From IMG/VR virus record IMGVR_UViG_2568526411_000004: a stretch of 22,737 bases of DNA. One strand, 5' to 3'. Positions 1-21,563 of this stretch are shown here, one piece after another; position 1 is the first letter of the stretch, and each line of letters opens with the position of its first letter. The notes below the pieces were generated by a model that saw nothing but the letters and a program-made list of their open reading frames with translations, had not been told where the DNA came from and searched no databases. This stretch comes from a virus. Lineage: Duplodnaviria > Heunggongvirae > Uroviricota > Caudoviricetes. Both the position numbers and the translations under genes were made by a program.

Positions 1-613
1 CACGCCCTTGATACGAAACTAATTTTCCATTCAGATCTCGAACGGGAATGATGATGCGGTTATCAAAACTTTGGCGCTTCTTCTGACCGAATGAATCGAT
101 GTAAGAAAAAGAACCCTGCTGACAAAAACGCAGACCAAAAGCTTTAGCCGTCTCGATGCTAATGCCTCGATCAGCTAAATACTTCAAATTGTGAAGCTTT
201 GAGTCTTTACCGAGAATGGGCAACTCAAACGAAGCTGGAAAGTGCAGATTTCCCAACTTTGGTCGCTGGACTTCTTGTTTATGCTTCGGTTGCCAACCCT
301 GCTCCCTTGCAACGACCTTGATGTGTTCTGCAATTTCTTTATTGGTTAAATTGCCAAGCTCAGCTTTAATAAATGACCATTTAGAGAATTTAGCCTCACA
401 GTCACCATGAAAGCAGTTGCCCAAACCTGTCGTGGCCCCAATGTAGACCTTCCAATTCGCGTTACCGCAAACAGGACATTCCTTCAAGTTCAGCTGCACA
501 CCATTTCGACCACGAGTAACTTTATACTCAACGCCTTCACGATTTAGCCAATACTCAATATCAATGTGGTCGAGTATTTCGCCAAAATCTTCTTTTGACG
601 GTTGGCCACTCAT
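1..613 (-). CDS. Phage DNA primase (N-terminal Zn-binding domain plus start of DnaG-type catalytic domain); partial, runs off the left edge
   Basis: Not in the ORF track because no stop lies in the window. Manual translation from ATG at 613 (RBS AAGGGTG): MSGQPSKEDFGEILDHIDIEYWL...ECPVCGNANWKVYIG...NCFHGDC...YLADRGI...DNRIIIPVRDLNGKLVSYQGR. It has a CxxC/C-H-x-x-C zinc motif and the DnaG-like RIIxPxRDxxGxxxxxxGR motif, and lies downstream of the helicase. Confidence 0.88.
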   Translation of the reverse strand, partial: MSGQPSKEDFGEILDHIDIEYWLNREGVEYKVTRGRNGVQLNLKECPVCGNANWKVYIGATTGLGNCFHGDCEAKFSKWSFIKAELGNLTNKEIAEHIKVVAREQGWQPKHKQEVQRPKLGNLHFPASFELPILGKDSKLHNLKYLADRGISIETAKAFGLRFCQQGSFSYIDSFGQKKRQSFDNRIIIPVRDLNGKLVSYQGR

Positions 614-799: not shown

Positions 800-2197
800 T
801 TAGTCCACCCTTAAAATTCTCTCGATGAACTTCATACGAGATAAGTCTTGCTTAATAACGATTGTGAAACCTGCTTCTTGGTTACGTGATGCAGCAAAAT
901 ACAACCGCGCTTCACCGTTTTGACGCTCTTCTTCGGTTTTGTTAATCGAAATCATCAAATCCACGATACGCACTTTGTTAAAGTCGTCTGCTACGTGTTC
1001 TGCTTTGGCTACCGTTTGTTTACTACCATCACGATTCGATTGAGTCGCGGTTAGAACAGCGGCATTTTCTTCAAAGGCGATTGCACGAAGATCCACCCAG
1101 ACTTGCTTTGAGTTTTCGATTGGGTCTGATGTGCGGTAATTCGGCGCCATAATGTCTGCATAATCGACTACGATTAAATCGAAAGTTATTGGCGGTCGAA
1201 TTGTTCCATCCGGGTTACGAGCTGCACGCTTGTAAGACTGAATGAGATTTCGCAACTGATTGCCAGTCAATGTTCCTGATGCGTATTCATGAATACGCAA
1301 TTGACCAGATTCTTTAGCGAGCTTCTGAATTTGTTGCGCAACATCATTGGCTTTCACGCCAAGCTCTTTCATCATGGTGTCTGTAAGCGACGCATCAAAA
1401 CGATCCGCAATGATATTTGCGCCCACTTCTAAGGTTGCGTACAAAACGTTAAAACCTAACCATGAGGCAATTCGAGCAAAGTGAATTAAAGCTGTAGTTT
1501 TACCTGACTTTGGCCCACCCAAGAACGCATATAACTCTTTGCGCCCCCATCCTCGATGATATAAAAGCCCATCTAAACGAGGGTCGCCCGTCGATATACC
1601 CTGTGGAGGAAGAACGCCACTCACCTTCTCTATGCGCTCAACGGTACGTTGCTGGATGCGATCATGAGCAAAGAAGTCATAACCCGCGCCATCTTCATTA
1701 ATACCGACAGCAAGCGCTTCTTCAATGACAGGGTGAATCGCTTCGACTTTACATTTGTTAAGTAGATCGACCGCCTTCAAAATTGCAGTTTTCATCGCGA
1801 ATGTGCGAGCAAAATCCACCAATTTTTCTTCGACAAATTGACGGTTAGATAAGTCTGCTAACTGAACGTCTTTAGCTGCTTGAATAACAAGTGGCGTCAA
1901 CTCTCTACGAATGGCCCGCTTCGTTATTCTTTCTTTCAGCTGAGCGATTAAAGAAGCGTTATCTGGAGCGCAGTTGTATTTTTGAAAGTGGTCTAATGCG
2001 ACCGCAACCAACTGTCCTAGCCCTTCGTTTACGAAAAACTCAGGTTTTAACATCATGGCTGATCGACGCAAAAATTCACTATCACGCAAAGAAAGCGCTG
2101 CTATCTTCAACTGAAAAGCATCGTCAAACTCAAATTGATCTGTTACTGGCTGTTGTGCTGTGGCGGGCTGAGCCGCCGCAGTACTTTGAACTGACAT
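800..2197 (-). CDS. DnaB-like (SF4) replicative DNA helicase
   Basis: Walker A GGPKSGKT, catalytic region LYATLE, Walker B LIVVDYAD, TATQSNR motif and late FAASRNQ motif; RBS AAGGTG; adjacent to the primase. Confidence 0.92.
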   Translation of the reverse strand: MSVQSTAAAQPATAQQPVTDQFEFDDAFQLKIAALSLRDSEFLRRSAMMLKPEFFVNEGLGQLVAVALDHFQKYNCAPDNASLIAQLKERITKRAIRRELTPLVIQAAKDVQLADLSNRQFVEEKLVDFARTFAMKTAILKAVDLLNKCKVEAIHPVIEEALAVGINEDGAGYDFFAHDRIQQRTVERIEKVSGVLPPQGISTGDPRLDGLLYHRGWGRKELYAFLGGPKSGKTTALIHFARIASWLGFNVLYATLEVGANIIADRFDASLTDTMMKELGVKANDVAQQIQKLAKESGQLRIHEYASGTLTGNQLRNLIQSYKRAARNPDGTIRPPITFDLIVVDYADIMAPNYRTSDPIENSKQVWVDLRAIAFEENAAVLTATQSNRDGSKQTVAKAEHVADDFNKVRIVDLMISINKTEEERQNGEARLYFAASRNQEAGFTIVIKQDLSRMKFIERILRVD

Positions 2198-2206
2198 AGT
2201 TACACC

Positions 2207-2746
2207 TTAGCTTGGTCTTGGTGCAGTTGTCACCGCAGTAATCGGTGAGAACATTACCAAATTGTGTTTAAAAATCACTCGCACAGTGTAGGTTTTGCCG
2301 TCTTCATTCGGACACTCAAGCGAAATCGTTTCTTCATCTGAGGTTCGAATGGTTCCCGTGTACGTCATGCCATTGGTCAACGTCACTTCGATTGGACTTT
2401 GAGTCTCTTGTAAGTTGAACAAATATTTACGATGACCAGATAAGAAAGTTTTTTTGCTCTCTGTCTGATCATTACTAAAGATTCCCTTTCTCCACTCTTT
2501 TTGATCACGGAAACCATGACGCAATGTACCTTTTGGATGGTTGTAAGGGTGACGAAACTCTAAAGTGTCAGTAACCACAGGCGGCATAGCGGAGTTACCT
2601 ACCGCAAATCGCTCTTTTATGTATGGGTTTGGCACTTTCTGATCAATCGCTTGCCCGAATTCCTCATCAGGTTCGTTTTGCATCATCATACGACCATATT
2701 GTGCTTGAGAAATCATCTCATCCTGAGTATTCCAACCTTGAATCAT
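2207..2746 (-). CDS. Hfq/Sm-fold domain protein with a ~100-aa N-terminal extension
   Basis: Residues 104-168 align without gaps through Sm1 to E. coli Hfq (PIEVTLTNGMTYTGTIRTSDEETISL vs [26 protein letters not shown]) and carry the Sm2 signature IFKHNLVMFSP (vs VYKHAISTVVP). Strong RBS AAGGA 7 nt before the ATG. Confidence 0.8.
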   Translation of the reverse strand: MIQGWNTQDEMISQAQYGRMMMQNEPDEEFGQAIDQKVPNPYIKERFAVGNSAMPPVVTDTLEFRHPYNHPKGTLRHGFRDQKEWRKGIFSNDQTESKKTFLSGHRKYLFNLQETQSPIEVTLTNGMTYTGTIRTSDEETISLECPNEDGKTYTVRVIFKHNLVMFSPITAVTTAPRPS

Positions 2747-2782
2747 ATATAGTTCCTTCTATATTAAATACCCAATTAGTAT

Positions 2783-2796
2783 AGTCAGTACTGACT
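2783..2796. promoter_or_regulatory. Perfect palindrome AGTCAGTACTGACT (candidate operator)
   Basis: Lies ~37 nt upstream of the Hfq-like ATG. It is embedded in ATAGTCAGT-ACTG-ACTGACTAT, a second overlapping inverted repeat. Confidence 0.6.
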
Positions 2797-2814
2797 GACT
2801 ATTAAAAGAAATAT

Positions 2815-3555
2815 TTAAATGAATTTAGCTTCATTGATCGCCTCCTGAACAATGTCAAGATCAAACTCAGCAATGACCCTCTCGATTCTCAAGCACTCTT
2901 TCTCATAAAGACAATAAGACAAAGCATATTGAGGTAAACGTTTACGCTTAATTTGCTTAATCAAATAGTCCTCATAATCACGTTGAACTACACTGTTTGA
3001 GTAGTTTGCGACGTTGAAGTAGGGGCTACAAGCGTATTGAGTTACCGCCTCACATGTTTCCAACCAGTCTGCATACACTTTTTCGAACAGCTCTTCATTT
3101 TTAAGCATTGATGGGCGTGGTGGCATAATTCGACCGTTATAGATCATCTTATGCAAATGCTTCATTGCACTTGTAAAAAAGAACTCATATCTCATGCCGC
3201 AAGCATCTACCATTTGTCTTAAACGCCAAATTGTATTTCGCTCTTGAGTTGAGTCGAGAAAATCAACGTACTTACGCATTGGCTTTACAAAGTCTGCCTG
3301 CTCGCAGTTGATGTTTTGACGCCAAAAGTTTTTGTAAGCTTCGCTGTACAAGTGGAAAAAATAATAAGTGGCCATAAGTGGGTGCATGATTCTGTAATCA
3401 AACCACTTCTTATTCATCAGCTCTGTTTCAACTTTGAGATCCGCACGTTTAATGTTGCTTATAGTGAGGATTTCATAATGCTCAAATCGGAGATTGCCGT
3501 ACAAGAACGGCGGCAGGAAGTTTAGAAACTTCGACTTGGGTGAACTTGGGTGCAT
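2815..3555 (-). CDS. Conserved hypothetical phage-plasmid protein (replication-operon associated)
   Basis: 246-aa ORF between rep and the Hfq-like/helicase genes. The segment KWFDYRxMHPLMAT resembles, from memory, a conserved uncharacterised protein of SSU5/pHCM2-like phage-plasmids; function not assignable. Confidence 0.75.
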   Translation of the reverse strand: MHPSSPKSKFLNFLPPFLYGNLRFEHYEILTISNIKRADLKVETELMNKKWFDYRIMHPLMATYYFFHLYSEAYKNFWRQNINCEQADFVKPMRKYVDFLDSTQERNTIWRLRQMVDACGMRYEFFFTSAMKHLHKMIYNGRIMPPRPSMLKNEELFEKVYADWLETCEAVTQYACSPYFNVANYSNSVVQRDYEDYLIKQIKRKRLPQYALSYCLYEKECLRIERVIAEFDLDIVQEAINEAKFI

Positions 3556-3670
3556 CCGTGTGAATCACTATTAATAAATATTAACTAAGAGAGATTATAT
3601 AATTAATATAGTGATCGCGGTATTCATTCCCAAGTGCCCAAGTCGCGGAATACAAATGTTGCCAGCGGTA

Positions 3671-4519
3671 TTAAAATGGCAACTCTGGGTCGTCGTCATT
3701 GTTCGGTAGCAATTTGCTTGGATCTCCGCCGCCTTCGTTATCGTCCTCAAGTTCTTCTTGCTCAGGCTGTTCACCTTCAGGCAGCGCTTTCAATTTATGA
3801 CTAAAAGAATAGCCGATAGTTGCTCTCTTTTCCCCTCTTACAACTTCAAAGTCCATTTCAATATTAGTTTTACTTGTGACTTCTTTGACGGACTTTTTAA
3901 TTACTTGAGCTGTGAAAAACTTTAACTCTTTTGGGTCGGAATATTCATTGTCTGGCACGCCTAAGAAGTTTTTCATATAGCTAACTGTCAAGTCTGGCGT
4001 TTTGCCGCTTTTGCGCCACATCATCATTAGTTCATACATCCTAATCGAATGCATGGATGACAACCGACCAATATGTCGTAGGTTGTAATAAGTAAAACTT
4101 TTGCGAACATTCGCCAGCAAAGGAAGTACTGTTGTAGAAAATAGAATTTCAACACATTTTAACTCGTCGTTATAACGAGCGTCTTGTACCCAGTTAATAC
4201 CACCTACCCAACGGCCGGGGTCTGATTCTGTTTTAAGTCTTTTGTATTTCAACTTGGCATTAAGTAAATCATCGGGCGCATCTTTAATTGCTTTATACGA
4301 ACCCGACATGTCCGAACTTGAGCCATATAAATTGTGATAATCATGCGCTGTAATGCGAATGTAAGTATTCTCGCCAGACTTTAGCATGTTTTCTAAGAAC
4401 TTGTCCGTACCGGCTAATAATATAAGTCTATAAGCGATGACTGATACATTAAAAAAATGAGCCTGTGTTAAGTTATTGTGTTTCTTAACTTTTGGATTGC
4501 TTTTAACAATAGAGGACAT
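3671..4519 (-). CDS. Plasmid replication initiator, Rep_3 (RepB-type) family
   Basis: N-terminal VKKHNNLTQA, then the Rep_3-like ...ILFSTTVLPLL...FTYYNLRHIGRLSSMHSIRMYELM...F...VIKKSVKEVTSKT. Adjacent to iterons and DnaA boxes. Start moved from TTG 4537 to ATG 4519, which has an AGGGA RBS. Confidence 0.9.
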   Translation of the reverse strand: MSSIVKSNPKVKKHNNLTQAHFFNVSVIAYRLILLAGTDKFLENMLKSGENTYIRITAHDYHNLYGSSSDMSGSYKAIKDAPDDLLNAKLKYKRLKTESDPGRWVGGINWVQDARYNDELKCVEILFSTTVLPLLANVRKSFTYYNLRHIGRLSSMHSIRMYELMMMWRKSGKTPDLTVSYMKNFLGVPDNEYSDPKELKFFTAQVIKKSVKEVTSKTNIEMDFEVVRGEKRATIGYSFSHKLKALPEGEQPEQEELEDDNEGGGDPSKLLPNNDDDPELPF

Positions 4520-4563
4520 ATATTCCCTAACTTCCAATGATCACCAAGTACTGATGAAAAACT

Positions 4564-4575
4564 TAACTACCGAAA
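4564..4575. repeat. Isolated iteron core TAACTACCGAAA in the rep leader
   Basis: Identical to the 12-bp core of the iterons at 4739-4833; lies between the candidate promoter and the rep start. Confidence 0.75.
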
Positions 4576-4596
4576 TATTTTGTTTTGGCGTCATTA

Positions 4597-4625
4597 AGCC
4601 TACATTTGATAGTAATAAGTGTCAA
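4597..4625 (-). promoter_or_regulatory. Candidate sigma70 promoter for rep
   Basis: Minus strand: perfect -35 TTGACA (4625-4620), 17-bp spacer, -10 TAGGCT (4602-4597, retains TA---T). Confidence 0.5.
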
Positions 4626-4666
4626 AACCAATTTTTTAAGACTCAATCAGCTAAATATTAACCAAC

Positions 4667-4701
4667 TTACCCACAAAAACTGTGGATAACCATGTTGATA
4701 A
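4667..4701. promoter_or_regulatory. DnaA box cluster
   Basis: TTACCCACA (4667-4675, 8/9 match), TGTGGATAA (4681-4689, perfect TTATCCACA on the minus strand) and TGTTGATAA (4693-4701, 8/9 match), immediately next to the iterons. Confidence 0.8.
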
Positions 4702-4715
4702 CCACTGTATTTGGT

Positions 4716-4833
4716 GGAAAAAATGACTACCAAACTTTGGAATTTTTAACTACCGAAATTGGAATTTTTAACTACCGAAAATTTAAAAAACGGAATTTTT
4801 AACTACCGAAAACGGAAATAGTAACTACCGAAA
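4716..4833. repeat. Replication iterons (oriV): 20-bp GGAATTTTTAACTACCGAAA
   Basis: Exact copies at 4739-4758, 4761-4780 and 4792-4811; variant GGAAATAGTAACTACCGAAA at 4814-4833; degenerate copy at 4716-4735. Spacings are 23, 22, 31 and 22 bp, i.e. close to multiples of a helical turn. Confidence 0.92.
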
Positions 4834-4956
4834 ACAAGCTGAAACCTTTGCTACAAAAAGCTTTGAGGCATGTTCTATAAGTTATTATAAAATACCTACG
4901 GTATAGTATATAAACACTAGACGGTGTTTGATCATATGCAGGCATGTGATCTTATG

Positions 4957-6280: not shown

Positions 6281-6310
6281 ATTATAAGCGGATTATTGAT
6301 TATTTGTAAG
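6281..6310 (-). promoter_or_regulatory. Candidate promoter of the lysis cassette
   Basis: Perfect -10 TATAAT (6286-6281); weak -35 (TTACAA at 17 bp or CTTACA at 18 bp) abutting the palindrome at 6309. Confidence 0.45.
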
Positions 6311-6322
6311 TCAGTAGTGACT
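6309..6322. promoter_or_regulatory. Palindromic motif copy AGTCAGTAGTGACT
   Basis: In the divergent intergenic region, touching the -35 region of the lysis promoter candidate. Confidence 0.6.
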
Positions 6323-6381: not shown

Positions 6382-6399
6382 AGTCAGTAAGTAGTGACT
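6382..6399. promoter_or_regulatory. Palindromic motif copy (AGTCAGTAAGTAGTGACT; 6386-6399 is a 1-mismatch copy)
   Basis: Second copy in the same intergenic region, upstream of the plus-strand ORF. Confidence 0.5.
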
Positions 6400-21549: not shown

Positions 21550-21563
21550 AGTCAGTCCTGACT
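21550..21563. promoter_or_regulatory. Palindromic motif copy AGTCAGTCCTGACT
   Basis: Lies 4 nt upstream of the gpM-like ATG, in the only gap between the tape-measure and M genes. Confidence 0.6.

Follow-up and report, generated by a model that had tools for sequence, protein, structure and literature searches.

A divergent Hfq-like gene directly upstream of the replicative helicase gene in Acinetobacter phage-plasmids and related tailed phages

The locus described here lies in a 22,737-nucleotide (nt) stretch of viral DNA (IMG/VR record IMGVR_UViG_2568526411_000004; Caudoviricetes), referred to below as the window. Its minus strand carries a gene for a 179-amino-acid (aa) Hfq-like protein, P0001, located immediately ahead of a gene for a DnaB-like replicative helicase. 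An earlier interpretation based on the DNA letters and their translations (the sequence-only reading) had described an Hfq fold at residues 104–168, a ∼100-aa N-terminal extension preceded by a strong ribosome-binding site, and a stop codon 9 nt before the helicase gene, within a replication operon; the coordinates agree, the extension is real, and the sequence GAAGGA is found 7 nt before the ATG. The gene, its parts and its neighbors are as follows.

2207–2746, minus strand: Hfq-like gene (P0001, 179 aa), product identical to WP_000614153.1, with a whole-length match to phrog_19781
2243–2437, minus strand: Sm/Hfq domain, residues 104–168, based on Pfam, a Protein Data Bank (PDB) profile, AlphaFold2, Foldseek and alignment with Escherichia coli Hfq
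2516–2746, minus strand: conserved N-terminal module, residues 1–77, based on an AlphaFold2 helix at 7–23 and conservation in the close relatives P0002 and P0003
2438–2515, minus strand: variable Lys/Arg/His-rich linker, residues 78–103, based on low predicted local distance difference test (pLDDT) scores and low identity to P0002 and P0003
2754–2759, minus strand: Shine-Dalgarno sequence GAAGGA, 7 nt 5′ of the Hfq-like ATG, from sequence inspection
2198–2206, minus strand: 9-nt spacer GGTGTAACT between the Hfq-like stop codon (2207–2209) and the helicase ATG (2197)
800–2197, minus strand: DnaB-like replicative helicase, 465 aa (Pfam DnaB_C, phrog_19)
2815–3555, minus strand: conserved 246-aa protein (phrog_2500), the upstream partner of the helicase
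3671–4537, minus strand: Rep_3 initiator (Pfam Rep3_N and Rep3_C; RepB family according to PGAP), a plasmid-mode replicon adjoining the module
2–613, minus strand: 5′ part of a toprim/primase gene, downstream of the helicase gene and continuing past the window edge

A 4.7-kb stretch encompassing this locus is 99.9–100% identical to 27 Acinetobacter baumannii plasmids of 105–114 kb, which encode tail, capsid, terminase and holin proteins, as well as DNA polymerase III alpha, ribonucleotide reductase and ligase. These carrier plasmids belong to the ‘AB’ group of phage-plasmids that Pfeifer et al. (2021, PMC7969092) described in Acinetobacter. The phage-plasmid pPB364_1 (NZ_CP040426.1) encodes its own helicase, primase, DnaE polymerase and ligase, and harbors, outside the window, an IS26-flanked msr(E)-mph(E) macrolide-resistance insert (L083:10288-14645).

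A divergent Hfq domain with altered RNA-binding faces

The Pfam Hfq family PF17209, a search that the sequence-only reading had proposed as a check, matches residues 108–171 of P0001 with an E-value of 2e-6 and a marginal 27.7 bits, just above the gathering score of 27; all other Pfam matches at E ≤1 are to small beta-barrel (Sm- or SH3-like) families. PF17209 also matches 21 of the 27 family members described below (best E-value 5.6e-11), and a profile of 27 relatives matches solved Hfq chains with E-values reaching 1.1e-8 (B. subtilis 3ahu). An AlphaFold2 monomer model built from the family alignment predicts a helix (residues 105–115) followed by five strands (118–168), with pLDDT values of 90–97, which is an Sm fold and not the non-Sm fold that the sequence-only reading had named as speaking against it. 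When this model was compared with the PDB using Foldseek, all 50 of the 50 matches listed were Hfq chains (TM-score by target 0.73–0.92), while the best structural matches in BFVD were gp117 of Pseudomonas phage nickie and other uncharacterised phage Sm-like proteins. Judged by sequence profiles and predicted structure, the C-terminal part of P0001 is a true but divergent Hfq/Sm domain, and the earlier placement of the fold is borne out by all four approaches.

Alignment (MAFFT) of P0001 with E. coli K-12 Hfq (from NC_000913.3) revealed an overall identity of ∼24% and reproduced every residue correspondence, kept or changed, of the sequence-only reading. Conserved positions (Hfq=P0001) include P21=P118, L26=L123, N28-G29=N125-G126, G34=G131, I36=I133, D40=D137 and P64=P168, and the Sm2 motif [YF]KH is present (Y55-K56-H57 corresponding to F159-K160-H161). 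Most residues through which Hfq contacts RNA are replaced: rim R16/R17/R19 by Q113/E114/Q116, distal-face Y25/K31 by T122/T128, and proximal Q8/F39/F42 by H105/S136/E139; the proximal pocket positions 41 and 42 are occupied by Glu138-Glu139, with K160 and H161 kept. The rim arginine patch is reported to be needed for RNA annealing by Hfq (PMC3753642). P0001 thus shares with bacterial Hfq (PF17209; E. coli, P. aeruginosa, L. monocytogenes and B. subtilis structures) a helix with five bent strands behind it, the Gly and Asp of Sm1 and the [YF]KH motif of Sm2. Its extension, however, is N-terminal (103 residues) where Hfq has a C-terminal tail, and its strand 3–4 loop carries 10 inserted residues relative to the E. 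coli protein. The gene setting differs as well, being miaA-hfq-hflX for bacterial hfq and a phage replication operon for P0001.

On the 27 A. baumannii plasmids the PGAP product name of P0001 is ‘RNA chaperone Hfq’, in keeping with the earlier expectation that Hfq-like annotations might exist. If this name were right, P0001 would be a regular Hfq that pairs small RNAs with mRNAs; the name itself and the PF17209 score just above cut-off speak for this, but the NCBIfam Hfq equivalog TIGR02383 yields 21 bits against a cut-off of 61.7 and NF001602 16.6 bits against 95, and with the rim arginines, distal Tyr25/Lys31 and proximal Gln8/Phe39/Phe42 replaced, we find such an activity hardly credible. 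Because the equivalog cut-off is failed, the database name overstates what is known.

The sequence-only reading had also suggested that P0001 might poison host Hfq, entering its hexamers as a mimic or competitor and disturbing small-RNA regulation. The shared fold, including the strand 4–5 region that forms the subunit contacts of Hfq, is compatible with this idea, and nothing else favors it. The protein is only ∼24% identical to E. coli Hfq, and has the 10-residue loop insertion and long N-terminal arms; in sequence it is matched best by Bacillus, Thermotoga-type and Listeria Hfq, not by gammaproteobacterial Hfq, indicating that P0001 is not a recent copy of host hfq. It also bears a signature of its own (GH...FKH) that recurs across many viral contigs, in a replication operon to which, and not to any RNA-related gene, it is fixed. 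This part of the earlier interpretation does not hold up well, and we regard poisoning of host Hfq as very improbable.

The relatives of P0001 form an unnamed phage family (phrog_19781, phrog_5258; nickie gp117; pABTJ2 WP_000005905.1), which spans many viral contigs as well as cultured Pseudomonas and Acinetobacter phages. A word-indexed search of 5.8 billion proteins returned just two close clusters, at 75–77% identity (P0002 and P0003). An exhaustive HMMER search of 1.84 billion representatives identified 27 proteins at E ≤1e-3, all 90–177 aa in length except for two of 727 and 5,414 aa, in which partial matches are repeated, and back-translated patterns retrieved 67 loci from IMG/VR, many of them on contigs of 105–118 kb. 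A tblastn search of 50,697 phage records with P0001 and P0026 gave no match, which reflects the limited sensitivity of that search, since nickie carries a member.

The family consensus signature reads GH-E-A-F-L-K ... G ... S-D-K-Y-T-I-S ... R-V-x-F-K-H ... F-x-P, and P0001 has in common with the family GH-x-x-[FY]L ... G ... D-x-x-T ... FK[H], carrying the invariant or near-invariant residues G104-H105, G131, D137, T140 and F159-K160-H161. Among 73 family members, over which this and the following residue counts were made, 72 have His where Hfq has Gln8; Lys56 is kept in all 73 and His57 in 65, and the Tyr55 position is Phe in 71. The Phe42 position is Tyr or Phe in 58/73 and the Gln41 position Lys in 55/73, whereas P0001 and its Rep_3-bearing relatives differ from most of the family in having acidic or, in some relatives, small residues there (Glu at both 138 and 139 in P0001, in place of Lys-Tyr), the pocket of P0001 being the most eroded. 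At the rim, the Arg16 position is Glu (53/73), the Arg19 position Gly (45/73) and the Arg17 position variable; on the distal face, the Tyr25 position is mostly Glu or Thr, and Lys31 is not conserved. The 20 residues preceding the GH motif have a net charge of at least +3 in 63/73, compared with +1 in P0001. The family has thus dropped the rim and distal faces of Hfq, keeps the proximal-pore positions in altered form and adds a basic arm; by homology with Hfq, His105, Lys160 and His161 would line the proximal pore.

Within the first 103 residues of P0001, AlphaFold2 predicts a helix at 7–23 (pLDDT ∼86), containing a (R)..Q...(G/A)R.M motif also present in the family consensus, followed by a low-confidence segment (24–103). 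Residues 1–77 are 77–83% identical to P0002 and P0003, compared with 83–86% for the Sm domain and 38–46% for the linker (78–103). Across phage lineages the extension varies from 0 to ∼100 residues, is completely different in sequence and is longest, among the members seen, in P0001. The N-terminal part alone has no homologue in the exhaustive search of 1.84 billion proteins, an Atlas search with residues 1–100 produced no usable lead (score 0.76), and PADLOC gave no match.

Conservation in close relatives combined with divergence between lineages is a pattern expected of host-specific adaptation, and the protein evolves fast; the N-terminal module might accordingly be directed at a host factor, recruiting or blocking a replication, RNA-decay or defence protein, with the Sm ring providing multivalency. 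Short members of 88–97 aa (including nickie gp117), which are devoid of the module, nevertheless keep their position directly before the helicase gene, and neither the PADLOC result nor the absence of homologues of the N-terminal part lends support, so that we consider a host-directed role quite unlikely.

A fixed position ahead of the helicase gene

In all 67 viral loci found via the Hfq-like family, a helicase homologue is encoded directly downstream on the same strand. When the start codon nearest the Hfq-like stop is taken as the helicase start, 64/67 loci have this start within −8 to +10 nt of the stop; the spacing is −4 in 20 loci, consistent with an ATGA-type stop-start overlap. In the window, the stop codon and spacer read TAAGGTGTAACT-ATG and contain TAAGGTG, the ribosome-binding site of the helicase gene, which thereby takes in the Hfq-like stop. 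A homologue of the 246-aa protein (∼245 aa) is encoded directly upstream of the Hfq-like gene in 66 of the 67 loci, the exception being cut by a contig end. Sampling in the other direction, via the helicase alone, found the Hfq-like domain upstream in 76/77 loci, and the one exception begins inside the helicase gene. Seven more metagenomic contexts showed the same order, and four of these, like the window, include a Rep_3 gene.

The arrangement extends to the other AB subgroup, in which pABTJ2 encodes, in order, Rep, a 244-aa protein, the Hfq-like protein (143 aa), helicase and primase; identities to the window proteins are 57% for the helicase, 46% for the 244-aa protein and 40% for the Hfq-like protein (Sm domain only). 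Whole-genome searches with the family profile detected exactly one copy, at the expected position, in each of nickie, pPB364_1 and pABTJ2. The Hfq-like gene is a fixed, lineage-specific part of a phage-type replication module in one clade of ∼105–120 kb tailed phages and phage-plasmids, to which the Acinetobacter AB group, Pseudomonas phage nickie and numerous uncultured viruses belong.

Three of the related helicase genes contain inteins (L007:1550-4333, L074:4214-7027 and L166:2925-5243; products of 772–937 aa); Pfam Intein_splicing was seen for the L007 and L166 products, and the L074 intein is surmised from length only.

A quick maximum-likelihood tree of 53 helicases places all 48 that accompany an Hfq-like gene on one side of a branch (Shimodaira-Hasegawa-like approximate likelihood ratio test, SH-aLRT, 84), and outside it four helicases whose phages do not have the gene, together with that of Stenotrophomonas phage ANB28. 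One gain and no later loss suffice to explain this distribution: the ∼245-aa protein and the helicase form the conserved pair, and the Hfq-like gene, which entered between their genes a single time, has stayed there. Its retention across helicase divergence down to ∼42% identity argues that its function is tied to the replication module.

The slot occupied by the Hfq-like gene holds, in ANB28, a gene for a 69-aa acidic protein (L080:1796-2005) that follows a ∼225-aa gene and overlaps the helicase gene by 8 nt; the protein seemed Sm-like by eye, but Pfam gave no match and hhalign a probability of only 0.4% (E 0.15). Most helicases encoded next to an Hfq-like gene (L009-L075, e.g. L009:4285-4400) bear an N-terminal tail of 35–50 residues, in which a motif resembling E-S-V-A-x-M-I-G precedes an Ala/Pro/Thr/Glu-rich linker. 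The tail is absent in SSU5, B1VFA and ANB28 and degenerate in the AB group, the window included. A link between this tail and the Hfq-like gene was considered and dropped: the tail follows the same tree branch, the AB-like clade that includes the window has the gene without the motif, and locus L074 keeps the motif despite a non-aromatic pocket.

Two further features of the window concern transcription.

2778–2805, minus strand: promoter-like site (TTAATA, 16 nt, TATACT), from sequence, 37 nt before the Hfq-like ATG, with a transcription start predicted near 2771
2783–2796: 14-bp palindrome AGTCAGTACTGACT in the spacer of the promoter-like site

Allowing up to two mismatches, AGTCAGTACTGACT occurs four times in the window (2783–2796, 6309–6322, 6386–6399 and 21550–21563; 0.05 expected) and 27 times on the 111-kb plasmid NZ_CP040426.1 (0.44 expected). 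The copies share the same asymmetric flanks (...atc / tatact...), have one orientation and lie ahead of minus-strand operons; those checked against the annotation are nearly all intergenic. The palindrome is likely a phage-wide promoter or operator motif. Because the promoter-like site lies directly upstream, the Hfq-like gene appears to be the first cistron of a unit with the helicase and primase genes, transcribed apart from the rep and 246-aa genes. Eighteen RNA-seq runs from five studies contain the stretch, as assembled contigs of 15–37 kb for which DNA carry-over is possible. In one low-depth run (X17), depth was 51.6 for the contig covering rep and the 246-aa gene (2962–4886), 10.9 for the Hfq-like contig (2228–2923) and lower for helicase fragments, values that cannot rank genes; they hint only weakly at unequal expression of the rep and Hfq-like/helicase units in the plasmid state.

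A possible accessory of the replication module

The sequence-only reading was correct about the fold, about the rewiring of the RNA-binding faces and in assigning the gene to the replication operon; of its three proposals, a helicase accessory fits the data best, given the synteny of 67/67 and 76/77 loci. We tentatively favor a reading in which the Hfq-like protein is an accessory of the replication module that forms an Hfq-like ring, does not pair RNAs and acts together with the helicase. P0001 would assemble into a ring no longer able to pair small RNAs with mRNAs; it would be made in step with the helicase and work with it at the origin or the fork, where it might help to load the helicase, keep it tethered, or retain single-stranded nucleic acid or primer ends close by. 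Since residues 1–77 are nearly as conserved as the Sm domain and the linker is variable, the N-terminal module may serve as a docking arm on a flexible basic linker. A more specific version would make the protein a new kind of replicative-helicase partner, a hexameric Sm-ring adaptor that docks on the 246-aa protein or on the helicase itself and passes single-stranded DNA or primer ends on to the helicase-primase; this version is speculative and rather unlikely.

An independent parallel comes from archaeal plasmids. In Thermococcus and Methanocaldococcus plasmids, Hfq-like genes immediately adjoin helicase genes within one transcription unit, and Krupovic et al. (2013) proposed a replication role for their products (PMC3543421). 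These proteins (pCIR10 gp2 and relatives) resemble P0001 in being Sm/Hfq-like domains encoded beside a helicase gene on a mobile element; they differ in that their genes lie downstream of a different kind of helicase gene and in that most have an N-terminal zinc finger, and they are compared with P0001 here at the level of the fold. Hfq3 of B. anthracis pXO1 (PMC5348863), a plasmid-borne Hfq paralogue, is like P0001 encoded by an extra Hfq-family gene on a large extrachromosomal element. The phage family, for its part, is defined in addition to its signature by the position that its members share with P0001, between the ∼245-aa gene and a DnaB-like helicase gene. Hfq3 is reportedly a compact canonical Hfq, studied for RNA-related effects, and we know of no link between it and a helicase operon.

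Gene placement also recalls that of replicative helicase loaders and adaptors, among which are DnaC, lambda P, DciA, SPP1 G39 and T4 gp59; in SPP1 genes 38-39-40, a small gene lies between an upstream replication gene and the replicative helicase gene. P0001 nevertheless has no sequence relation to these proteins and no loader match in Pfam (E ≤1) or NCBIfam. Neither a canonical single-stranded DNA-binding protein (SSB; PF00436) nor a DnaC/IstB-type loader above cut-off was found in five whole elements of ∼103–115 kb (NZ_CP040426.1, NC_020524.1, NC_042091.1, NC_018843.1, NC_034248.1); the DnaC/IstB search returned sub-threshold matches only, two of which (nickie, RHEph10) lie inside PhoH-like genes. 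The idea that the Hfq-like protein substitutes for SSB was rejected: SSB-less elements include those with and those without the gene, and the distributions are not complementary.

Among candidates for the initiator or loader of this helicase family, the 246-aa protein is a good one, and as loader at least as good as the Hfq-like protein. It is predicted by AlphaFold2 to be all-helical (pLDDT 93), a fold for which Foldseek found no match below E 0.6, the best VIA match had a Z score of 4.7 and the best Atlas match a TM-score of 0.43. Its ∼245-aa homologues (phrog_2500) are encoded directly 5′ of the helicase or Hfq-like gene in every related phage checked, including SSU5, RHEph10, B1VFA and nickie.

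Several observations weigh against the favored accessory role. In Salmonella phage SSU5, Klebsiella phage pJN2-26 and Rhizobium phages RHEph10 and B1VFA, whose helicases are related (38–44% identical), the ∼240-aa gene is followed directly by the helicase gene, with gaps of 60–118 nt, and the family profile finds no member anywhere in these four genomes; as related phages run their helicase without it, the Hfq-like protein is not a core or indispensable loader. A single gain also means that the many syntenic loci are not independent observations, representing one event kept by descent. The Hfq-like protein evolves faster than the helicase (20–37% versus 45–59% identity to the window proteins). 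Finally, the Sm core of P0001 has a net charge of −2, and this acidic core, together with E138/E139, makes nucleic-acid binding less certain for P0001 than for the family at large.

A role in RNA biology has to be weighed against the same data. The Hfq-like protein could be a post-transcriptional regulator that binds phage transcripts by means of its pore residues and basic linker, for instance a translational repressor or stabiliser setting the amounts of helicase and primase, much as T4 RegA, whose gene lies within a cluster of replication genes, acts as a translational repressor of such genes. Its fold is that of an RNA binder, and the FKH and pore positions are the best-conserved polar residues of the family, most members also keeping the aromatic residue at the Phe42 position and the Lys at 41; the gene heads its operon just behind a promoter-like site, and is dispensable in related phages, as a regulator might be. 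Host Hfq, moreover, is reported to affect plasmid copy control via antisense RNA (PMC11012335). The rim arginine patch, however, is absent family-wide, as is distal Tyr25; P0001 itself has Glu-Glu at positions 41/42 and an acidic core; no target RNA motif was identified; and it is not obvious why a free-standing regulator should be coupled so strictly, stop to start, to the helicase gene, as in 64/67 loci. Regulation of phage transcripts is the main alternative, somewhat less probable than the accessory role.

The literature searched contained no paper linking Hfq with Acinetobacter phage-plasmids or SSU5 and none on ‘phage-encoded Hfq’, and the papers on pABTJ2 and on phage-plasmids do not mention the Hfq-like gene. 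No functional study of any member of the phage Hfq-like family was found there either, in line with the sequence-only reading, which knew of none.

The name ‘RNA chaperone Hfq’ likely misleads automated surveys of Hfq-dependent regulation. The ∼110-kb phage-plasmids occur commonly in clinical A. baumannii, where some bring resistance genes with them, making knowledge of their replication, in both plasmid and lytic mode, of practical value. Hfq is the central small-RNA matchmaker of bacteria, and a branch of its family that is locked to a helicase gene and has lost the matchmaking surfaces would indicate a second, replication-related use of Sm rings. If true, a partnership between such a ring and the helicase would take the Sm fold beyond RNA metabolism into DNA replication across an entire clade of phages and phage-plasmids, to which archaeal plasmids may offer a parallel.

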